Shown here in pieces: positions 29,861 through 40,444 of a DNA stretch of 64,000 bases (position 1 is the first letter of the stretch; each line of letters starts with the position of its first letter). The stretch covers positions 28,959 to 92,958 of the forward strand of contig JBCCHT010000051.1 in NCBI GenBank assembly GCA_039028615.1. Direction: 5' to 3'. The notes beneath the pieces were generated by a model, which saw only the letters and a list, made by a program, of their open reading frames with translations, was not told where the DNA came from and searched no databases. Both the position numbers and the translations under genes were made by a program. The stretch comes from Myxococcota bacterium (GTDB lineage Bacteria > Myxococcota_A > Polyangia > Nannocystales > Nannocystaceae).

Positions 29861-30358
29861 ATGGACCTGTACGTACTGCGTCACAGCATGGCGGTGGAGC
29901 GGGGCAGGCTCCCGCGCGACTCCGACCGACCCCTGACCGAGGCCGGTCAGAAGCGGCTGGAGCGGGCCACCCAGGCCTGGGACGCAATTGGCGTGAGCGT
30001 GGAGCTGGTGGTCACCAGCCCGCTCCTTCGCGCCCAGCAGAGCGCAACCATCGCGGCCGCGGCCCTCGGCATCTCCGACCGGATCCACCCCGAGCGCTCC
30101 CTCGCCCCCGGGGCTTCGCCCGCGGCCATGGTGCGCACCCTCGACGACTACCAGAGCCGCGCCGATCGAATCATGCTCGTCGGACACGAGCCCGATCTCG
30201 GACGCTTGGTGAGTACGCTCGTCTGCGGAAACGACGAGGCGGGCTTCCGCATCAAGAAGGCCGGCCTGCTGCGATTGTCCATCGGCACGCTCCGCGCGGG
30301 TCGATGCGCCACGTTGGAGTGGCAGCTGTGGCCCCGGCACTTGCTCAAGATGAGCTGA
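29861..30358 (+). CDS. sixA: Phosphohistidine phosphatase SixA
   Basis: LYVLRH, DSDRPLTEAG, TSPLLRAQQSA, LVGHEPDL, KKAG. Confidence 0.88.
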   Translation: MDLYVLRHSMAVERGRLPRDSDRPLTEAGQKRLERATQAWDAIGVSVELVVTSPLLRAQQSATIAAAALGISDRIHPERSLAPGASPAAMVRTLDDYQSRADRIMLVGHEPDLGRLVSTLVCGNDEAGFRIKKAGLLRLSIGTLRAGRCATLEWQLWPRHLLKMS

Positions 30359-30615: not shown

Positions 30616-33462
30616 GTGAAAGCCGACCTCATCGAAGTTCTGGCCTGTCCGGCCTGCCGTGGTCCGTTGACGACGACCGACGCAGTCGACGGCCGCATCG
30701 TGAACGGCATCTTGCGTTGCGAGGCATGCGGCACGGCCACCCCGGTCGCGCACGGGTTCCCGCTCTTCGAGCACACCCGACTCGACGATGGCCGCACCGA
30801 CGTGACCTGGGTCGAGTCGGCCGCCAGCAAGTGGTTCCAAGATCGCGGCACCTACGAGGAGTTCCTACGCAAGAAGGCCGAGCGCAAGACCTACGACGCC
30901 TACGCGATGTTCCAGCCCTTCAACGAGTCGCTCCGCGCCCTGCTCGCGGTGATCGAGCCGATTCGGGCCCAGCTGTCGCCGGGCGACGTCATCCTCGACA
31001 CGTGGAGCCGCTCGGGCTGGCCCGGGGCCTGGGTCGCCTCGCTCTTCCCCGAGCAGCACGTGATCTCGCTGTGGGAAGGCGACGGCAACGTGCTCGGCTA
31101 CGCGGGCTTCGACTACTGGCTGGGCGAGGGCCAGCGCCGCGACAACTGGGACATCGTCTTCACCCACGCCAGCGATCCGCTGCCCTTTCGCACGGGGGCC
31201 TTCGCGCTGCTGCACGGCTACGAGTCGCTGCACCGCTATCGCCCGGGGATGTTCGTCTCCGAAGCACATCGGGTCACGGCCGACGATGGTGCCATCGTCT
31301 TCACCCACATCCACCTGACCAACAGCGAGCCCGACCCCTGGTTCGAGCGCGGCTGCATCCAGCGGCACGGCACGCTGTACCGCGGGCTCTTCGATCGGCT
31401 GCATGCCGGCCAGGATCGCAAGGCCCTGGTCTTTGGCGAGCGCACCCTGTTCGAGGCGGGCGAGTCGTTCACCTTCACCGACGCCGCCCAGACCGAAGAC
31501 TACAACGGCGCCATCGTGATCGGGCCCGCCGCGTGGGAAGGCCAGACCTTCCGCACCGAGCACGCCCAGCCCATCACTCGGGACTCGTTCCTCATCGTCA
31601 ACCCGCTCTTCGACCTCGACCTCGGCGGCGCGCAGGCGTCGTGGAGCTACGACGGCCGCGAAGGCCAGGTCGGGCACCTGCTCGAGCGACACCCCTGCTA
31701 CGAAGACCGCATCCGCTCCCTGAAGAGCGCCACCATGCACGGCTACCAGCCCGAGCTGGTCTACTTCGCCGCGCAGTCGTGGACCTTCGGGCAGATCGCC
31801 GACCGGCTCGGCGTCGACGAGTCCGAGCTGCTCGCCCAGGCCAAAGAGCTCGCCGAAAAAGAGATCCTCTGGCCGGCCACCGTCTCCCCGGCCATGGCTC
31901 GGCTGCAGCACTACTACGGCACCATCGAGGTCGCCGACCCGCAAGAGGGCTCGTTCGCCGCGCTGTGGGCCAAGCTCCCCGCGCTGTACGAAGAGCGGCC
32001 GATCATCGAGACCGAGGACGGCACCGAGTTCACCTGGGAGGTCGTGGAGCAGCTGGGCACCGCCGTCGCCTGCTGGCTGCTCGAGACCACCACGGTCGGC
32101 GACCGCGTGCTGCTGCACTGCCCCAACTGTCCCGAGGCCTATATCGTCATCTGGGCGTGCTGGCTGACGGGGCGCACCATCGTGCCCGTCGAGCCCGATC
32201 TTCCGCTCGAGGCGGTCAACGAGCTCATCGGTCGCACGAGCCCCGCGCTGGCCTTTTCCATGCAGGCCCTGTCGGTGCCGAGCTACCAGTTCGACAGCCT
32301 GTACGACGAAGAGCAGCCGAGCGAGCTGCCCACCTTCTCCGAAGGCATCGAGCCCTACCTCGAGGCGCCCGAGCCCGCGCTGCCCGAGGTCGACGGCACG
32401 GGCGACGCGGCCATCTTGTTCACGTCGGGGAGCACCGGTCGCCCCAAGGGCGTGCGGCTGAGCCACGCCGCGCTGACCTCCAGCGGCGCGGCCTTGGCCC
32501 GCCACTTCCAGTGGGTACCCGGCGACCGGCTCTACTCGGGCGGGGCCAGCTACTCGATGTCGGGCCTGCGCAACCCCGCGCTGGGTGCCCTGCATGCGGG
32601 CGCCACCATCGTGCTGCCCGAGGCCCAGGGCCCCATGAACCCGCTGCGCGCCTACGAGCTGGTGCGGCTGCAATCGGTCAGCATCGTGACCACCGTGCCC
32701 GCCCAGCTCAACGCCTGGATCGCCATGCGCGAGCGCCTCAAGGACCAGCCCCGGCCCGCCTCGCTGCGATCGATCGCCTACACCGGGCACGGCATCTCCG
32801 ACGCGGTGCGCGAAGAAGTCAGCCAGTGGCTCGAGGTCCCGGTGACCGGCTACTACGGGCTCACCGAGACCTGCGGCCTGTGTCTCGGCGACGAGGTCGG
32901 ACAGCGTGCCCAGGGCAACATCGGGGGGCCCGTCGCCGCCCTGGCCCAAGTGGTCGATCGCGACGGGGTGGTCGTGCCCGATGGCGAGCGCGGCGAGCTT
33001 CGGATCTGTAGCCCGCGCATCATGAGCGGCTATCTCGAGGCCGACACCGTGAGCACCGTGCGGCTCGAGCACGGCTGGCTCTACACCGGAGACGCCGCCA
33101 TTCGCCAAGCCGACGGCAGCGTCGAGCTGGTGGGGCGCTTCGACGACCAGATCAAAGACCGCTTCGGAGACACCGTGTTTCCCTCCGAGGTCGAAGGCGT
33201 GGCAGCCGAGCTGTCGGCCGTCGACGACTGCGCGTGCCTGGCCGTGCACGATGCCTCCGACGTCGCCTCGCTCGTCTTGTTCGTCGTCGCCCACGAAGGG
33301 GCCGACCGCGGCGAGATCGAGTCCGAGGTCCTGCGATCGGTCGATGCTCGGCTCGGCGCACGCAAGCGACCGGGCCGCATCGTGTTCTGCGAGTCGCTGC
33401 CGCGCAAGACCAGCGGCAAAGTCAACCGACAGGCCCTGCTTTCGCAGGCCGGGATGAAGTGA
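30616..33462 (+). CDS. Fusion of Trm112-like Zn domain, methyltransferase-like domain and AMP-binding (ANL) domain
   Basis: LACPACRG...LRCEACG...HGFPL (Trm112-like); VILDTWSRSG and LPFRTGAF (degenerate class I MTase); FTSGSTGRPKG, YGLTE, YTGD, LPRKTSGKV (ANL). GAAGGA RBS precedes GTG 30616. Confidence 0.85.
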   Translation: MKADLIEVLACPACRGPLTTTDAVDGRIVNGILRCEACGTATPVAHGFPLFEHTRLDDGRTDVTWVESAASKWFQDRGTYEEFLRKKAERKTYDAYAMFQPFNESLRALLAVIEPIRAQLSPGDVILDTWSRSGWPGAWVASLFPEQHVISLWEGDGNVLGYAGFDYWLGEGQRRDNWDIVFTHASDPLPFRTGAFALLHGYESLHRYRPGMFVSEAHRVTADDGAIVFTHIHLTNSEPDPWFERGCIQRHGTLYRGLFDRLHAGQDRKALVFGERTLFEAGESFTFTDAAQTEDYNGAIVIGPAAWEGQTFRTEHAQPITRDSFLIVNPLFDLDLGGAQASWSYDGREGQVGHLLERHPCYEDRIRSLKSATMHGYQPELVYFAAQSWTFGQIADRLGVDESELLAQAKELAEKEILWPATVSPAMARLQHYYGTIEVADPQEGSFAALWAKLPALYEERPIIETEDGTEFTWEVVEQLGTAVACWLLETTTVGDRVLLHCPNCPEAYIVIWACWLTGRTIVPVEPDLPLEAVNELIGRTSPALAFSMQALSVPSYQFDSLYDEEQPSELPTFSEGIEPYLEAPEPALPEVDGTGDAAILFTSGSTGRPKGVRLSHAALTSSGAALARHFQWVPGDRLYSGGASYSMSGLRNPALGALHAGATIVLPEAQGPMNPLRAYELVRLQSVSIVTTVPAQLNAWIAMRERLKDQPRPASLRSIAYTGHGISDAVREEVSQWLEVPVTGYYGLTETCGLCLGDEVGQRAQGNIGGPVAALAQVVDRDGVVVPDGERGELRICSPRIMSGYLEADTVSTVRLEHGWLYTGDAAIRQADGSVELVGRFDDQIKDRFGDTVFPSEVEGVAAELSAVDDCACLAVHDASDVASLVLFVVAHEGADRGEIESEVLRSVDARLGARKRPGRIVFCESLPRKTSGKVNRQALLSQAGMK

Positions 33463-35291
33463 ACGACGTGACGACCTTCCATCAATACGCGTCGGCTCGG
33501 CCGCGCAAGCAAGAGTTCCTCGACGGTGACAACGCGATCACCTACGGGGCCCTGACCGAGCAGCTCGGCAAGACCATCGCCTACCTGCAAAAGCAGGGCC
33601 TCCAATCGGGCGATCGCATCGTCATCGCCAGCGACGACAGCTCCGCCTTCGCCTCGCTGTTCTTCGCCATGGTCGACATGGGCGTCGCGGTGGTGCTCGG
33701 CGACCCCGGCATGACGCCGGCCGAGCTCGCCCGCCTGGTCGCCCTGCTCTCGCCGGCCGGCATCATCATGGACGACGCGCTCATCAAGCGCCTCGGGGCC
33801 AGCAACCACGACCTGCGGCTGTGCCTGTCCATCAAGGCCAAGGCCAAGGGCGGCGGCCTGCTCGGCAAGCTGCTGGGGAAGAAGCGAGCCAAGGCCGCGC
33901 CCGCCAGCACCTACCCGGCCGTGCTCGATGGCCTCGACGCCGTCACCCCCGACGGCGGCAGCGATGACGACGTCGCGTTCATCGTGATGACCTCGGGCTC
34001 CACCTCGCAGCCCAAGGCCGTGCCCGGCACGCGCAAGGCTCTATTCGCCCACCTCGACACGCTCACCAAGCAGTTCGGCTACGACGACGGCAGCCGCATC
34101 ATGAACCTGCTGCCGCTGTCGCACGTGGACGGGATCATCCAGGGCCCCGCGCTCGCCTGCCGCACGGGCGGCACCTGGGTACGGCCCTTCCCCTTCACCG
34201 TGCAGAACATCGAGCCGATGCTGCACGGCATCTACAGCAAGCGGGTCACCCACTTCATCGGCGTCCCCACCATCCTCTCGCTCATCCACCGCATGTCCAC
34301 GAACCTCGAGGACAGCTTCGCCACCGACGACTTCAAGTTCGTGGTGTCGGCGGCGGGCAAGCTCGAGGTCGAGCTGTGGCAGGGCTTCGAGACCACCTTC
34401 AAGACCCGCGTCTGCAACCTCTTCGGGCTCTCCGAGACGGTCACCGGGGGTCTGTTCGCCGGGCCCGGCGACGACTCCCGCCGCTACGGCACCATCGGCA
34501 AGCCCACCGACTGCGAGGCGCGGATCATCGACGAGCAAGGCAACGACGTCGCCGACGGGGGGACCGGCGAGCTGTTGCTGCGCGGCGACAACGTCTTCGG
34601 CGGCTACATCTCCGACGATCCCAACGTCAACGACGGCCTGTTCATCGACGGCTGGCTGCGCACGGGCGACTTGGTCCACCGCGACGCCGATGGCTTCTAC
34701 GTCATCGACGGTCGCCTCAAGAACGTGGTCATCACGGGCGGCGAGAACATCTACCCCGAGGAGATCACCGAGGTACTCAACGGCCACCCGGGCGTGGGCG
34801 CGGCCACCTGCTTCGGCCTGCCCCACGGCGAGTGGGGCGAGATCCTCGTCGCCCTGGTCCAGCGCACCGACGCCTCGCTCGCGGAAAACGACCTCATCGG
34901 CTGGGCCCGCGAGCGGCTGAGTGCCTACAAGGTGCCCAAGGAGATCGCCTTCACCGGGGAGCTGCCCCTGGGCCCCTCGGGCAAGGTCCGCATGAAGGAG
35001 GCCAAGAAGATCTTCGAGGAGCTCCGTGGCGGCGACGCGGGAGCCAGCGGCAACGTCGACGAGCGCGTCATCGCCATCGCGGCCTCCACTTTCAAGCAGC
35101 CCAAGGATTCCCTGGGTGCGCGCTCGGGCCCGCACAACACCCCGGGCTGGGACTCGCTGGCGCACATCAGCTTCGTCGTCGCCCTCGAGGCCGCGTTCTC
35201 CATCAAGATCGCCACCGGTGAAATCATGGCGCTCCAGAGCCTGGGCGACGCCGTCAACACCGTGAGCAGTCACGTCGACAAACGGGTATGA
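33459..35291 (+). CDS. AMP-binding (acyl-AMP ligase) enzyme with C-terminal acyl carrier protein
   Basis: MTSGSTSQPK, FGLSE, GWLRTGD, GGENIYPEEI, PSGKV; ACP motif GWDSLAHISFVVALEAAF. GTGA overlap with the previous gene. Confidence 0.9.
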   Translation: MNDVTTFHQYASARPRKQEFLDGDNAITYGALTEQLGKTIAYLQKQGLQSGDRIVIASDDSSAFASLFFAMVDMGVAVVLGDPGMTPAELARLVALLSPAGIIMDDALIKRLGASNHDLRLCLSIKAKAKGGGLLGKLLGKKRAKAAPASTYPAVLDGLDAVTPDGGSDDDVAFIVMTSGSTSQPKAVPGTRKALFAHLDTLTKQFGYDDGSRIMNLLPLSHVDGIIQGPALACRTGGTWVRPFPFTVQNIEPMLHGIYSKRVTHFIGVPTILSLIHRMSTNLEDSFATDDFKFVVSAAGKLEVELWQGFETTFKTRVCNLFGLSETVTGGLFAGPGDDSRRYGTIGKPTDCEARIIDEQGNDVADGGTGELLLRGDNVFGGYISDDPNVNDGLFIDGWLRTGDLVHRDADGFYVIDGRLKNVVITGGENIYPEEITEVLNGHPGVGAATCFGLPHGEWGEILVALVQRTDASLAENDLIGWARERLSAYKVPKEIAFTGELPLGPSGKVRMKEAKKIFEELRGGDAGASGNVDERVIAIAASTFKQPKDSLGARSGPHNTPGWDSLAHISFVVALEAAFSIKIATGEIMALQSLGDAVNTVSSHVDKRV

Positions 35292-36280
35292 ACAGCCGGG
35301 TCCTGGTCTTGTTGGTCGCGCTGACCTCCGCCTACGTGCTGGCGGGGGTCTACACCGCCTATGCGCTGGTGCAGTCGGCCTACCAGGTGCCCAACCACGA
35401 GCGCTCGTACTCCGACTTCATCTTCGCGTGGGACTGGTGGAAGCGCTCCGATCCCGAAGCCCTATACGAAGACACCGACGTCGTCGCCTACGTCTCGTCC
35501 GTGGGCGGCCGCGCCCTATCGCCCCACGAAGTCGAAGAGGTCAGCAAGTGGCTCGTGGTCGAAGAGGACGTCGGCGGCCGCAAAGTCGCCGCCATCGGCC
35601 GCTTCCGACAGCCTCACCTGTTTCACTACTCGCCCTTCTTCGCCGCCAACGAGGACGGGGGCCGCATCGTCTTCATCACCGAGCGCTCGCTCATGGGCAT
35701 CTGGGACTCCGAGTCCCGACGCCGCGACCGACTCAAGGCGGTGTCGTTCCTCTTCCGCGGCTACATCGAGCAGATGTGGCCCTCCGGTCTGCAGTTCGAC
35801 ACCCTCGGCGACCTGCGCCGCGCCAACGAGGCGCTCAAAGACGAGAGCCGCGCCAACCCCTTCCGGCGGGACTTCAAGGTCGTCGACGGCGAGAAGGTCG
35901 ACTTCATGCTGCAGCAGCGCATCGACACCGACGGCCTCGACGGCCTCGAGTTCGATGACTTCCCTGCCGACATCCTCGAGACGGTTCACCGCTTCGTCGA
36001 GCAGGGCAACACCGTCTGGATCGTCTCCATCGCCCGCTCGCAGACCTTCGAGCCGCTCTACGCCGAGCGCATGGCCAAGACGCGCGACGCCATCTCGGAG
36101 CTGGCCGCCGACATCGACGGCATCGAGCACCTGTACTTCCCCGCCCTGCACGAGCGCTACTACCGAGACCACGCCCACATGAATGCGGCCGGCTCGGCGC
36201 TCTTCCACGAGTGGCTCACCGCGCAGCTCGACGCCCATGACGCGGGGCAGCCCCTGCCCGGCACGAGGGTCGCGCCATGA
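35288..36280 (+). CDS. Membrane-anchored DltD/AlgJ-like SGNH-type acyltransferase (putative)
   Basis: N-terminal TM; AYVSSVG (possible block I Ser); C-terminal YRDHAHMNAAGS (DxxH); ATGA-coupled between the ACP gene and the MBOAT. Confidence 0.7.
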   Translation: MNSRVLVLLVALTSAYVLAGVYTAYALVQSAYQVPNHERSYSDFIFAWDWWKRSDPEALYEDTDVVAYVSSVGGRALSPHEVEEVSKWLVVEEDVGGRKVAAIGRFRQPHLFHYSPFFAANEDGGRIVFITERSLMGIWDSESRRRDRLKAVSFLFRGYIEQMWPSGLQFDTLGDLRRANEALKDESRANPFRRDFKVVDGEKVDFMLQQRIDTDGLDGLEFDDFPADILETVHRFVEQGNTVWIVSIARSQTFEPLYAERMAKTRDAISELAADIDGIEHLYFPALHERYYRDHAHMNAAGSALFHEWLTAQLDAHDAGQPLPGTRVAP

Positions 36281-37404
36281 ACCCGTTGCAGTGGATCCAC
36301 CTGGCCATCGCCTTCGGCCTGGTCGCCCTGTTCTGGATCGTCCCCAAGAAGGCGCGCCTGTTCGTGCTCGCGGGCGCGGGCATGGCCGGCATGGCCTACC
36401 TCGACTGGCGCTCGCTCCTCGTGCTCGTCGCCTCGAGCCTCGCCGTCTTCGCCCTCACCCGTCGGGGAGGCAAGGCGGGCTACGCCGCCGCCATCGCCAC
36501 CTGCTGCGTCACCCTGCTCGGCTACCGCGCCTGGCAGGTGGCCGTCGCCGCCGACACCAGTACCTTCGTACTGCTGGGCTGCGCCTTCTACCTGCTGCGC
36601 CTGGCCCACTACGCCATCGATTCCGCCGCGGGCAAGGTCCGCGACCACGGCCTGGCCATCTTCATCGCCTACTGCTTCTTCTGGCCCACCCTCACCGTGG
36701 GTCCCGTCAACCGCTTCGACGCCTTCATGCGCGACGACCAGCGACGGCGCTGGGACCCGCGGCTGTTCATCTCCGGCCTCGAGCGGATCCTCTTCGGCTA
36801 CTTCAAGCTGGTGGTGCTGGCCAACTACCTGCTGGCCACCAAGTTCCTGCCCTTCGCTCAGAACTTGGGCGGGGACGACAATGCGCTGGGGGCATGGCTA
36901 CTCAACATGCACTACGGCCTCGACCTGTACTTCCGCTTCGGGGCCTTCTCCGACATTGCCATCGGGCTGTCGCGGCTGGTGGGGGTGCGGGTCATGGAGA
37001 ACTTCCGCTGGCCGTACTTTCAGGCCAACATCGCGGAGTTTTGGCGGAGCTGGCACATCTCGGTGTCGGGGTGGTGTCGGGACTATGTGTTCTCGCCCAT
37101 CGCGTTCAAGCTGCGGCAGCCGGCGGCGGGTGTGGTCGCCTCGATGCTCATCCTGGGGATCTGGCATGAGCTGTCGTTGCGGTACGTGTTATGGGGGCTG
37201 TTTCATGGGGTGGGGATCGTGGTTCATCGGCTCTGGCTGGCGTATGTGGGGCCTCGGATTGGGGGGGTGCCGGGGTGGATTCGGTATGGGGTCGGGATGG
37301 TGGTTACGTTCAACTTTGTGGTGTTGGGGTACTCGCTGACTCGGACGGATAGTCTGGCGGAGGCGGGGCGGGTCTTTGTGACGATCTTGACGTTGGGAGG
37401 GTAG
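36277..37404 (+). CDS. MBOAT-family O-acyltransferase (DltB/AlgI-like)
   Basis: FWPTLTVGPV, FGAFSDIAIG, ENFRWPY...EFWRSWHISVSGWCRDYVF, GIWHE (catalytic His). Confidence 0.93.
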   Translation: MNPLQWIHLAIAFGLVALFWIVPKKARLFVLAGAGMAGMAYLDWRSLLVLVASSLAVFALTRRGGKAGYAAAIATCCVTLLGYRAWQVAVAADTSTFVLLGCAFYLLRLAHYAIDSAAGKVRDHGLAIFIAYCFFWPTLTVGPVNRFDAFMRDDQRRRWDPRLFISGLERILFGYFKLVVLANYLLATKFLPFAQNLGGDDNALGAWLLNMHYGLDLYFRFGAFSDIAIGLSRLVGVRVMENFRWPYFQANIAEFWRSWHISVSGWCRDYVFSPIAFKLRQPAAGVVASMLILGIWHELSLRYVLWGLFHGVGIVVHRLWLAYVGPRIGGVPGWIRYGVGMVVTFNFVVLGYSLTRTDSLAEAGRVFVTILTLGG

Positions 37405-37408
37405 GGGG

Positions 37409-37546
37409 ATGTTTGCTTGGTTGAATGAGCGTATTGGGCTTACGGGGGCGGTTGTTGTGGCGCCGCTGGTTTATGCGATTGTTGTGTTGGTGATCTTGAT
37501 GTTTGTGGATTTGCCGACGGAGACGTTTCGGTATCTGGATATCTAG
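37409..37546 (+). CDS. 45-aa DltX-like single-TM peptide (not in ORF track)
   Basis: MFAWLNERIGLTGAVVVAPLVYAIVVLVILMFVDLPTETFRYLDI*. Starts 4 nt after the MBOAT stop, with GGAGG upstream. One TM helix plus a C-terminal F-x-Y-x-x-hydrophobic hexapeptide. Confidence 0.8.
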   Translation: MFAWLNERIGLTGAVVVAPLVYAIVVLVILMFVDLPTETFRYLDI

Positions 37547-37605
37547 GTCCGAGGTGATTCTGCTTCCTCGAGGGTGGGGATTGCTTCGAGTTGGTTCGGC
37601 GGAGG

Positions 37606-37780
37606 GTTCGAACGGGGGGCTCGCCTGTTGACGGCTGGATCCCTCCCCGGACGTGCTCGGCGGCCGTGAGGTTCGAGTGTTTCGCGACGGCAGTCGGCGG
37701 CCGCCTCCGCGCGACCGGGCCCCCTCCATCCTACGCGGCTTCGCTTCAGCCCTCCCCGGGACTCGGCCTCCCGGGCGAAC
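37606..37780 (+). repeat. ~175-bp dispersed repeat element, followed by a partial 3' copy at about 37815-37857
   Basis: gttcgaacggggggctcgcctgttgacggctggatccctccccggacgtgctcggcggccgt...cctccatcctacgcggcttcgcttcagccctcccc. Confidence 0.9.
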
Positions 37781-38042
37781 GTGGAGTGGGGCCTGCTCGA
37801 TCGTACCTTGGCTTGCTTCGCCTTGGCCCTCCCCGTGACTCGGTCTTCCGGTCGAACGGGGAGTGCCTCCTGCTCGATCACACGCTTGCTTTGCTTCGCG
37901 ATGGATGAGGGCTAGAGTTTCCACGGGGTCGATGTTGGGGCGAGCGGGCGGCGTGGGTTTTGCTCGGGCGGTGCCTGGTTTGCTTGGAGGGGGAGCGGTG
38001 GGGTCGCCTGTTCGTGGCGTGATCTTCTTCGGTTGCTGGTCC

Positions 38043-39257
38043 ATGATGCCGGAGGTGCCGGAGCGGAAGTCGTGTCCAGAGAAACGAGCCGGGAGGGGCT
38101 CGGTGTCGGTGGCTGCGGCGTTGGTGCTCGTTCTGGTCGGAAGCGGGTGTGGAGACTCGGGTCGGAGTCCGACGACCGAGGCCATCTCCTCGCCCGCACC
38201 CGAACCCAAGGCCGCGACGGCGGATTGCTCGAACGAGCGGTTGATCGAGTCGGGGGAGTACGGGTCCGTCGTGCTGCCCGACCGAGTGTGGTCGCCGTTG
38301 GTCTTCGGAGTCTCGAGCCAGATCGGTGCGTGTGCGGTCCCTCGGTTCGAGCTCTACGACCTGAAGACGCGGGAATTGATCGCGCGGCACGACCTTCCGC
38401 CGCTGCAGACGCCCGATGGTCTGAAGCGATGGGGCATGCAGACGGTCGCGGCGGGGGGACACGTGAAGTTCCTCGCCGGGAACAACGACGCGCTCTTCTT
38501 TCGTCTGACCGACGGCAAGGCCACGGTGGACACCCGGGTGCTGCGCTCGGAGGCCAAGGAGTACGCGTCGCGTTTGTTCACGAGCTCGGGGTCACACCTT
38601 CACGTCACGCCGGACACGGCCTACATCGACCTCAACGATGGCGAGCGTGTTGCGCTCGACCTGGAGTCGCGCGAGGTCACCCTCACCGAGGTCGGACCGC
38701 CCACGGAGCAGGAGCTGGCCGAGCGCCACGGATGCCCCGACTACACCGACACGATCGACAGATTCAAGGGCCGCGGCAGTCGACGTCCCTACGCGGGCGG
38801 CACCCAGGGCATCACGAAGCTACGGCCCGAGCGCATCCACTTCGACGACACCGACCGAGGAACGACGCTGGTCCTGCACGCTGCGACCGAGCGCGGCCGC
38901 CATCCGAAAGACGACCCGCCGGTCCTCATGGCGTCGGCCGACTCGTTTTTCTCGCCGACGATCTTCGTGCCCACCCGATGCGAGCCACCGGGCGTAGACC
39001 GAAAACTCCCCGCCCCCTTGCTCGTGTCGCATGGTTCCAGCCTCGACACGAAGACGGCGACGAGTCGGCTCTCCCGTGTGGCCGACGACGGCGCGACGGT
39101 CTGGACGCTGGACACACCGTTTCCTTTCGTCCATGGCTCCAAGGTTCGGTACTACGGAAGCACCCTATTCGTGTTCGATGTCGTCTCGAAGCACGCGCTG
39201 TGGATCGACATCGATGAGGGCACACTCGTCGCGGAAGCGAAGATGGTGACGCGATGA
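38043..39257 (+). CDS. Hypothetical lipoprotein, paralog 1 of a tandem pair
   Basis: VGSGC lipobox; shares WxPLVF, RFELYDLKTR, PAPLLVSH, WTxDTPF and ALWID with the next gene. Confidence 0.8.
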   Translation: MMPEVPERKSCPEKRAGRGSVSVAAALVLVLVGSGCGDSGRSPTTEAISSPAPEPKAATADCSNERLIESGEYGSVVLPDRVWSPLVFGVSSQIGACAVPRFELYDLKTRELIARHDLPPLQTPDGLKRWGMQTVAAGGHVKFLAGNNDALFFRLTDGKATVDTRVLRSEAKEYASRLFTSSGSHLHVTPDTAYIDLNDGERVALDLESREVTLTEVGPPTEQELAERHGCPDYTDTIDRFKGRGSRRPYAGGTQGITKLRPERIHFDDTDRGTTLVLHAATERGRHPKDDPPVLMASADSFFSPTIFVPTRCEPPGVDRKLPAPLLVSHGSSLDTKTATSRLSRVADDGATVWTLDTPFPFVHGSKVRYYGSTLFVFDVVSKHALWIDIDEGTLVAEAKMVTR

Positions 39258-40444
39258 CCCATACGGACTCGACCGAATCGAAGCCCCAGCTCCTGCCGAT
39301 GACGGGCCGATTGCATCACGCCGCACTCGTGCTCGCGCTGACACTCGGCGGTGGGTGCAATTCTTCGTCCCCGCGCGCGAACGCGGAAACGGCCGAGGCC
39401 TGCTCGGACGCACCATTGCTCGAGACGGGAACGCACGATGGAGCCCAGATACCGAAGCACCCGTGGGACCCGCTGGTCTTCGCGCTCATGGGAACGCCGC
39501 CAGGGTGCTCCGCTCAACGCTTCGAGCTGTACGATCTAAAGACCCGCACGCTCATCGCCCGCCACGAGTTCTCGCCAGTCCCCGATCCTCTGCGCGGGCA
39601 CACGCCGTGGGGTTTCACCGGATTCGAAGGCGGGCACGCGGTCCTCCACATCAAGCCCGCGAAGCGCGAGCGCACCGACGTGGTGTTGCTGCGCCTCGAG
39701 GACGGCGCCCAGGCGCTCGACACTCGGACCTTGCGAACCGAGGCCACCGCGTATCGAGATCGGTTCTTCACCGACATCATCCGGTACGTCCACCCGACCC
39801 CGGAGACCATCTACATCGAGCTCAACGACGCCAGCACCGTCGCCCTCGCTCCCACCACCACCACGCTGACCTCGACCACGGACCAACCGCCGAACACGGT
39901 CGAGATCGCCCGACGAGCCGGCTGTGGTCGAGGCTACGGCGGCCACATCGACCGCTTCTCGGGACCCGACGGCCGCAGTCGCTCCGCCGGAGGAACCACC
40001 GGCATCCAGCTCCGCCCCGAAGAGATCTACTTCGAAGAGAACAAAAAGAAAGTCCGTCTCGCCATCTACGAAACCGGAGAGCGATACGTCCCACCCGAAC
40101 AGCTCCCCGTGGTGATGAAGACCGAAGCCGTCTTCTTCGACCCCAAGATCTTCAAACCCGCCGAATGTGACTCAGGAGGCCCCGTCAACGGCCACCCCGC
40201 CCCCTTGCTCGTATCCCATCAGACCAATCTCGACCCCAAAGCCGCCACCGCCAAACTCTCGAGGATCACCACCGACGGCAAGACCCTGTGGACGATCGAC
40301 ACCCCCTTCCAACTCGAGGACCCGGTCCAGGTCCGATGGTACGACTCCACCCTCTTCGCCTACCGCCAGTACAAAAACCTAGCCCTATGGATCGACCTCG
40401 ACCAAGGCAAACTCATCCAACAACTCGACCTCACGACCCGCTAG
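39254..40444 (+). CDS. Hypothetical lipoprotein, paralog 2 of a tandem pair
   Basis: LGGGC lipobox; ATGA overlap; collinear similarity to 38043-39257. Confidence 0.8.
   Translation: MTHTDSTESKPQLLPMTGRLHHAALVLALTLGGGCNSSSPRANAETAEACSDAPLLETGTHDGAQIPKHPWDPLVFALMGTPPGCSAQRFELYDLKTRTLIARHEFSPVPDPLRGHTPWGFTGFEGGHAVLHIKPAKRERTDVVLLRLEDGAQALDTRTLRTEATAYRDRFFTDIIRYVHPTPETIYIELNDASTVALAPTTTTLTSTTDQPPNTVEIARRAGCGRGYGGHIDRFSGPDGRSRSAGGTTGIQLRPEEIYFEENKKKVRLAIYETGERYVPPEQLPVVMKTEAVFFDPKIFKPAECDSGGPVNGHPAPLLVSHQTNLDPKAATAKLSRITTDGKTLWTIDTPFQLEDPVQVRWYDSTLFAYRQYKNLALWIDLDQGKLIQQLDLTTR

Follow-up and report, generated by a model that had tools for sequence, protein, structure and literature searches.

A predicted Dlt-like acyl-transfer cassette with two ligases in a Nannocystaceae genome, and its relatives across about eight phyla

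We analysed a 64,000-nucleotide stretch (the window) of contig JBCCHT010000051.1 from a Nannocystaceae (Myxococcota) genome and found that five open reading frames (ORFs), all on the plus strand at 30616-37546, make up a real and widespread variation on the Dlt principle that is apparently undescribed; its acyl relay is well supported, and its cargo and acceptor are unproven. We think it somewhat more likely than not that this conserved, self-contained cassette builds a two-part acyl group on a carrier and relays it to an envelope component, most likely peptidoglycan. The Dlt-like logic proposed in the initial annotation of this DNA was upheld, as ligase, carrier, membrane-bound O-acyltransferase (MBOAT), tyrosine peptide and anchored SGNH protein are all present. 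The genes and their domains are as follows.

30616-33462, plus strand: gene 1, 948 amino acids (aa), with a Trm112-like Zn ribbon, a class I methyltransferase-fold domain, a small helical linker and ANL ligase 1
30616-30780, plus strand: Zn ribbon of gene 1 (C11/C14/C35/C38; Pfam Trm112p PF03966, residues 3-41, E 1.4e-6)
30886-31533, plus strand: methyltransferase-fold domain of gene 1 (residues 91-306; motif I D-T-W-x-R-x-G)
31951-33459, plus strand: ligase 1 of gene 1 (MSGLRN pocket, YYGLTE, catalytic K935; Pfam AMP-binding and AMP-binding_C)
33459-35291, plus strand: gene 2, 610 aa, ANL ligase 2 (H222-x-D224-G225) fused to a carrier protein (GWDSL)
35288-36280, plus strand: gene 3, 330 aa, an N-terminal membrane helix and an SGNH/DltD-type domain
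36277-37404, plus strand: gene 4, 375 aa, a DltB-type MBOAT with catalytic H297
37409-37546, plus strand: gene 5, 45 aa, a DltX-like membrane peptide ending FRYLDI

The arrangement first described, five co-oriented genes joined by overlaps and a short gap, was confirmed from the ORFs: genes 1-4 overlap through GTGA (33459-33462) and ATGA (35288-35291 and 36277-36280), and 4 nucleotides (nt; 37405-37408) separate genes 4 and 5. Purine-rich stretches resembling ribosome-binding sites precede 30616 and 37409, and a scan of the region for promoters and terminators gave nothing above chance. The early domain calls also held, by Pfam for the Trm112p, ANL and MBOAT parts and by predicted structures for the methyltransferase-like and SGNH-like parts; among the matches listed, no NCBIfam model reaches its cut-off for the cassette proteins.

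Co-occurrence and distribution

The genes, folds and catalytic residues of the cassette are strictly conserved and occur together in other genomes. A single-sequence locus search with the N-terminal domain of gene 1 gave nothing and an alignment was required; the profile gave 143 loci from GTDB species genomes and 120 from metagenomes, and we kept the best 80 of each, so that the N-terminal 440 residues have at least 160 relatives. Enough DNA for the whole set was available at 108 of the 160 loci (52 were set aside). All six functions (methyltransferase fold, ligase 1, ligase 2-carrier, SGNH protein, MBOAT and peptide) are present at 98 of these 108 loci, which are not independent, several being Janthinobacterium near-copies; co-occurrence of this kind had been proposed at the outset as a check on the system.

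The ligase-carrier fusion is found at all 108 loci. In layout A, that of the window, the methyltransferase-ligase 1 fusion comes first (72 of 80 complete), and layout B begins with a free ligase 1 and ends with the methyltransferase-fold gene (26 of 28 complete). The layout B methyltransferase-fold protein keeps a remnant of the ligase 1 N-terminal part, which a profile detected in 19 of 29 tails at E <1e-3 (best shuffle 1.9) and pairwise BLAST did not. The peptide was not found at L030 and L079, the SGNH gene lies 3' of the MBOAT gene at L079 and L080, and membrane genes are partly or wholly missing from the DNA examined at six loci (L061, L053, L059, L149, L160 and L161). The ligase 2-carrier gene is interrupted or split at L030:12905-13720, L037:12823-14636 and L066, be it by an insertion, a frameshift or an assembly error.

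By record titles, the carriers belong to Pseudomonadota, Bacteroidota, Myxococcota, Acidobacteriota, Actinomycetota, Chlamydiota and Nitrospinota, together with a Bacteriovoracaceae metagenome-assembled genome (MAG), so that the cassette is spread over about eight phyla in a rare and patchy manner. As a single query, the methyltransferase domain matched none of 72 other genomes of the host family. The methyltransferase-ligase fusion occurs in 4 of 401 genomes of a phylum sample, counted at E <1e-200 because the profile included the ligase and 381 of the 401 matched generic ligases; at most two candidates were scored per genome. These counts, and the carriage of the cassette by an Acidimicrobiales (Actinomycetota) MAG (L049), lend no support to the myxobacterial or purely Gram-negative context first assumed. 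A quick MBOAT tree puts the window in one group (Shimodaira-Hasegawa-like approximate likelihood ratio test, SH-aLRT, 99) with two Halieaceae, a Myxococcota MAG and two loci from metagenomes, a placement that fits transfer and for which we claim no donor.

Gene 3 is too divergent for tracking the cassette: as a query it found 1 relative by word search, 10 matches by exhaustive search and none in 60 related genomes. No flanking gene is conserved beyond close kin, and the 263 flanking genes scanned are mostly unrelated housekeeping genes, with glycan genes adjoining four loci (L047, L051, L032 and L059).

The proposed acyl relay

By analogy with Dlt, the acyl group would move from the acyl-S-carrier through MBOAT His297 to an ester on peptide Tyr42, then to an ester on SGNH Ser71 and finally to an acceptor hydroxyl, the acceptor site being an envelope component outside the inner membrane. 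We regard this relay as very probable.

The carrier domain of gene 2 scores 17.4 bits for PP-binding, under the 20.8 cut-off, and contains GWDSL with Ser566 at 35154-35156; W564, D565 and S566 are kept in 110 of 110 distinct relatives. Three matches to the phosphopantetheinyl transferase family were found in the host genome. Gene 4 matches Pfam MBOAT at 7e-24 and TIGR04091 (DltB) at 152 bits versus a cut-off of 375, and its profile matched only DltB in the PDB (E 1e-60). Its catalytic H297 is present in all 107 relatives. It ends in ILTLGG, and the cassette MBOATs have no C-terminal tyrosine motif of their own. Four other host MBOATs end in FIYFQF or FIYFNF (genome G000, C18, C13, C1 and C3; L182, L183, L185 and L186) and are of the AlgI/PatA type.

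A peptide ORF lies 3' of the MBOAT gene at 121 of 123 loci with room for it, the window included, as found with a loose search pattern that gave extra candidates at five loci. Among the first-picked peptides, Tyr stands four residues from the end in 117 of 120 and Phe six from the end in 108 of 120, and Tyr42 is the sole invariant column of 61 aligned peptides. Phe seldom occupies the last position, the endings including FRYLDI, FRYGQL and FYYLHR. None of the 61 peptides matches the DltX Pfam family, and a sub-threshold DUF6542 is the only Pfam match of gene 5.

A predicted three-chain complex of MBOAT, SGNH protein and peptide supports binding of the peptide to both proteins. The peptide scored 0.81 versus 0.00 for the best of 3 controls; the mark applied to this score is reached by 116 of 157 solved pairs and 2 of 215 mismatched pairs, a calibration that holds only roughly here as the prediction used its own alignments. 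Contacts agree between runs at 88% or more, partner chains have a predicted local distance difference test (pLDDT) of at least 75, and the confident interface includes MBOAT residues 297-298 and peptide residues 40-43.

Gene 3 matches no Pfam family and no DltD family by sequence, and its model has a pLDDT of 77.9. The best Foldseek match is DltD 6o93 (E 1.1e-3), with nothing at E 0.001 or better. In the exhaustive VIA-align search, the top 50 are nearly all SGNH proteins, with DltD 6pfx giving the longest alignment (Z 10.2, root-mean-square deviation, rmsd, 6.5, 248 residues). Since this wider aligner returned almost only SGNH proteins, we take the SGNH fold as settled, and both searches bear out the SGNH/DltD-type fold expected for the protein starting at 35288. 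The triad Ser71-Asp294-His297 is nearly invariant (S71 90/90, D294 89/90, H297 90/90 relatives).

The two ligases and the possible cargo

Both ligases match Pfam AMP-binding and AMP-binding_C. Alignment to a nonribosomal peptide synthetase (NRPS) A domain places M648, S649 and R652 of ligase 1 at NRPS positions 235, 236 and 239, and all 92 fused and all 20 free copies have S649, G650, R652 and Y746. Position 235 of ligase 1 is thus Met, position 236 is an invariant Ser, and an Arg lies at position 239 or beside it; from this pocket, ligase 1 is predicted to activate an acid with an anionic group. In ligase 2, D224, G225 and K509 are kept in 110 of 110 distinct relatives, as is Asp236 of the H-x-D-G motif; position 235 in the same 110 is mostly Ala (62), Val (19) or Thr (17), and never Asp.

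Asp235 binds the alpha-amino group of amino-acid substrates, according to passages of PMC11355689. Because it is missing from both ligases (Met in ligase 1, Ala/Val/Thr in ligase 2), D-alanine is an unlikely cargo and was rejected, as the initial annotation had suspected, and no DltA model is among the best 25 NCBIfam matches of either ligase. The predicted beta-alanine code VDATVSIADK starts with Val235-Asp236 (in the part of PMC3777966 containing Table 1); ligase 2 shares its Asp236 and not its Asp331.

The ligases also differ at two core motifs. The A4 His is kept in 107 of 110 ligase 2 proteins and replaced by Thr or Ser in ligase 1, and the A8 Gly is found in 109 of 110 ligase 2 proteins, 74 of 92 fused ligase 1 copies and none of the 20 free ones. 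In ANL enzymes, A4 and A8 residues gate the pantetheine channel, and a two-ligase precedent exists in streptothricin ORF5/ORF19. The gating role is not confirmed in the portions consulted of the review PMC10510592, and the A4 position was drawn from parts of PMC13126170, PMC10212144 and PMC10531068. ANL amide-bond synthetases such as McbA, CfaL and Cp1D adenylate an acid and condense it with an amine, as described in passages of PMC12568646, and ligase 1 looks like an amide-forming enzyme of this sort.

From the pocket residues and the A4/A8 differences, we infer that ligase 2 may load an omega-amino acid and ligase 1 may acylate the tethered amine. In the scheme that we tentatively propose, and hold to be possible rather than probable, ligase 2 would charge the carrier domain to which it is fused with an omega-amino acid resembling beta-alanine, ligase 1 would adenylate an acid with a distal anionic group and join it to the tethered amine as an amide-bond synthetase, and the methyltransferase-fold domain would tailor the cargo or a precursor with S-adenosylmethionine (SAM).

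The Zn ribbon and methyltransferase-fold domain

The AlphaFold2 model of gene 1 residues 1-445 (pLDDT 91.9) contains the Rossmann-like seven-stranded fold of class I SAM methyltransferases. The top structural matches are all enzymes of this class, the closest being RlmA(I) 1p91 (Foldseek E 5.6e-8; Z 15.2, rmsd 3.5, 204 aligned), and gene 1 has no Pfam methyltransferase match. Like gene 1, RlmA(I) carries a Zn ribbon ahead of a class I SAM-binding fold; it shares 14% identity with the gene 1 domain, which differs in a divergent motif I, a His-rich invariant site, a fused ANL ligase and the lack of a link to ribosomal RNA (rRNA).

The domain is conserved to the same degree as the ligases. H206, H231, H233, N236 and R245 are present in 148 of 148 relatives, W130 and R132 of motif I in 146 and 147 of the 148, and E154, the acidic residue after strand 2, in 138. 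The Zn-ribbon cysteines are each kept in 107-118 of the 148 distinct relatives and are hence not essential in all. Motif I reads D-x-W-x-R-T-G versus the standard D-x-G-x-G-x-G. The shortest methyltransferase-fold proteins (439-458 aa at L039:9986-11347, L109 and L156) have no ligase remnant, and their genes adjoin a divergent ligase 1 that keeps the MSG-R motif.

Candidate acceptors

The host genome (12.3 Mb, 68% guanine plus cytosine, GC, 96.7% complete) has 65 MYXO-CTERM matches, which fit a myxobacterial host. No match to LpxC, LpxB, LpxK or KdtA was found in it, and lpxC is also absent from three host relatives (G002, G005 and G014; 94-95% complete), so that the missing lipid A genes are a lineage trait rather than an assembly gap. 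The host's myxobacterial family appears to lack lipopolysaccharide (LPS). Among the candidates named at the outset, LPS was accordingly rejected as acceptor in this host, and a role in myxobacterial spore coat or exopolysaccharide was rejected because the cassette was not found in kin and no glycan genes are linked to it. What stood of the original proposal, an acceptor on an envelope polymer, is peptidoglycan as the best remaining guess.

A TagF family search also gave no match in the host, LtaS not being searched for, and MdoG, for an E. coli-type periplasmic glucan, was missing from the host and from all 5 carriers tested. Matches to pgsA are weak in three Bacteroidota carriers. MurG-like genes occur in the host (168 bits, below the cut-off) and in each of the 5 carriers tested. 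Should all carriers share a single acceptor, these results leave peptidoglycan; by this exclusion it is our leading candidate, though somewhat short of probable.

Weighing the readings

Several observations weigh against the preferred reading of a two-part acyl group relayed to peptidoglycan, in which cargo and acceptor are predictions. The SGNH gene has a median pairwise identity of 18%, compared with 31-36% for the other cassette genes, and is repeated in tandem in two cassettes (two copies in L010, 5422-7219; three in L085, 14649-17354). Different hosts may therefore use different acceptors, which could undo the argument by exclusion; LPS is a possible acceptor in the 44 of 50 carrier genomes that have lpxC. 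The six carriers lacking it include an Acidimicrobiales, a Sphingomonadales and a Polyangia MAG of unstated completeness. L026 and L075 have no SGNH gene between the carrier and MBOAT genes, the membrane genes are missing from the DNA examined at L053, L059, L149, L160 and L161, and block I of gene 3 is VSS in this copy and GxS in 90 of 90 relatives. The complex score, roughly calibrated as it is, may partly reflect likeness to DltB structures in the PDB. As to the cargo, position 331 of ligase 2 is mostly Gly (61), Cys (21) or Ser (15) in the 110 relatives, so that the second Asp of the beta-alanine code is absent; the numbering of ligase 2 rests on motif register, not structure, and this ligase stands nearer to acyl-CoA ligases, for which the code is unreliable, than to NRPS domains. 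With Trp and Arg in place of two motif I glycines, SAM use is not assured.

The same relay could serve a different acceptor: lipoproteins, a lipid or glycolipid of the membrane, or a host-specific polysaccharide differing from carrier to carrier. This is an unlikely but serious contender, favoured by the SGNH gene being the most divergent and sometimes multiplied part, by the glycosyltransferase or rhamnose-pathway genes beside L047, L051, L032 and L059, and by the action of DltD on a membrane-anchored glycerol-phosphate polymer, as reported in passages of PMC12148441. However, glycan genes are never conserved neighbours, no genes for LPS, E. coli-type periplasmic glucan or TagF-type polymers were found in the host, and pgsA is weak in three Bacteroidota carriers. 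The cargo might instead be made by a sequential thioester route. Ligase 1 would then make an acyl-CoA or adenylate for the fused methyltransferase-fold domain to modify, and ligase 2 would put the one completed acid on the carrier, perhaps a cationic analogue of beta-alanine methylated on N or S that would give the envelope positive charge as D-alanine does. A cationic group would fit the invariant Asp236 of ligase 2, 80 of 108 loci have the methyltransferase fold fused to ligase 1, and the free form of the fold keeps a ligase 1 remnant; but the Arg/Ser pocket of ligase 1 suggests an anionic rather than a cationic substrate, the A8 Gly is lost in all 20 free ligase 1 copies, and the two ligases are not connected by any thioesterase or transferase gene. 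We consider this route improbable.

Less probable again is that the methyltransferase-fold domain is a metal-dependent or SAM-fragment-transferring enzyme making one building block. Such an enzyme would suit the unusual motif I with its W130 and R132, the set of His/Asp residues that are invariant or nearly so (D203, H206, H231, H233 and H251), the missing Pfam methyltransferase match and the Atlas neighbours, which score only 0.84-0.86, whereas the top structural matches being class I SAM methyltransferases throughout and the retention of E154 in 138 of 148 relatives argue for the conventional fold function; motif I variants like D-x-W-x-R occur in working rRNA methyltransferases. A true dlt operon transferring D-alanine is very hard to reconcile with the data. 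DltB proteins are the only PDB relatives of the MBOAT, DltD is the top Foldseek match of gene 3 and a DltX-like peptide is present, yet neither ligase has Asp235 or a DltA model among its best 25 NCBIfam matches, the DltB model reaches 152 of 375 bits, the host has no TagF family match, and the set always includes a methyltransferase fold and a second ligase.

Comparison with known systems

The reading that we prefer, a carrier-built acyl group sent to the envelope, shares with Dlt an adenylating ligase, a carrier, a short MBOAT without a tyrosine tail, a membrane-anchored SGNH protein and a separate membrane peptide with F-x-Y near its C-terminus, as these are described in passages of PMC12148441. 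Unlike Dlt, the cassette has two ligases without Asp235, a carrier fused to ligase 2 where DltC is free, and an extra Zn-ribbon methyltransferase-fold domain. Its peptide ends in a variable residue in contrast to the FXYXXF of the Dlt peptide, and its SGNH protein of about 300 aa has no DltD Pfam match. The hosts are mostly diderms, and the window host has no lipid A or TagF genes, whereas Dlt acts on teichoic acids; dlt genes are already known in the Gram-negative Dickeya and Pectobacterium, as noted in parts of PMC5541007 and PMC10931765.

PatA/PatB, AlgI/J/X and WssH/I resemble the cassette in combining an MBOAT with a periplasmic SGNH transferase and a tyrosine shuttle, and PatAB acts on peptidoglycan in Gram-negative bacteria (passages of PMC12148441). 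However, PatA/AlgI/WssH-type systems use an acyl-CoA donor with no carrier protein and bear the tyrosine motif on the MBOAT C-terminus, whereas the cassette encodes a carrier and two ligases and has the motif on a separate peptide. According to a 2025 mechanistic paper (PMC12148441), non-Dlt MBOAT-SGNH pathways lack a carrier protein and a DltX-like microprotein. The cassette family has both, D-alanine is very unlikely to be its cargo, and the set has been kept complete in about eight phyla. ANL amide-bond synthetases such as McbA, CfaL and Cp1D share the acid adenylation and amine condensation proposed for ligase 1; they release a small molecule, whereas the cassette product would leave via the MBOAT relay.

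No description of this gene set was found in the literature searched, although a published sequence survey may list such clusters. The cassette points to a way of chemically decorating bacterial envelopes that is not yet described, the cargo being of greater complexity than acetate or D-alanine. In its most specific form, which we think unlikely, it would be a mobile cross-phylum cassette that builds a methylated N-acyl-beta-amino acid on a carrier protein and esterifies it onto peptidoglycan via a free DltX-like tyrosine peptide. If true, this would be a cell-wall modification of a new kind, the work of a very small assembly line feeding an MBOAT relay, with culturable carriers among Janthinobacterium, Caulobacter, Variovorax, Pedobacter, Hymenobacter and Tenacibaculum strains. 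Because cultured and harmless carriers exist, among them Caulobacter ginsengisoli, Variovorax ginsengisoli and Mangrovimicrobium sediminis, and every catalytic residue has been identified, both cargo and acceptor are directly testable.

Surroundings of the cassette in the window

A SixA-like histidine phosphatase gene (29861-30358, same strand) lies 257 nt upstream of gene 1; it is not a conserved neighbour, a His_Phos_1 gene being found at one other locus (L153). Within positions 37020-37900, a dispersed repeat starts directly after the peptide gene; it has 57 genome sites, often in inverted pairs 1-3.4 kb apart, and a 77-nt tandem unit at 37738-37891. Two overlapping ORFs, 37863-39257 (464 aa) and 39254-40444 (396 aa), have no Pfam match and a lower third-position GC, and are bracketed by an inverted repeat pair at about 37547 and 40931. 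In the 250 nt before the repeat, mean GC skew is +0.23 and mean AT skew -0.21 (49 sites; random -0.01, standard deviation 0.09), and this strand skew fades over 500-750 nt. Third codon positions near the repeat are rewritten, C falling from 0.62 to 0.20 in the last third of the MBOAT gene and standing at 0.04, with T at 0.37, in the peptide gene, and both frames are unbroken despite this change. The surroundings look like a strand-specific mutation halo around a mobile repeat.

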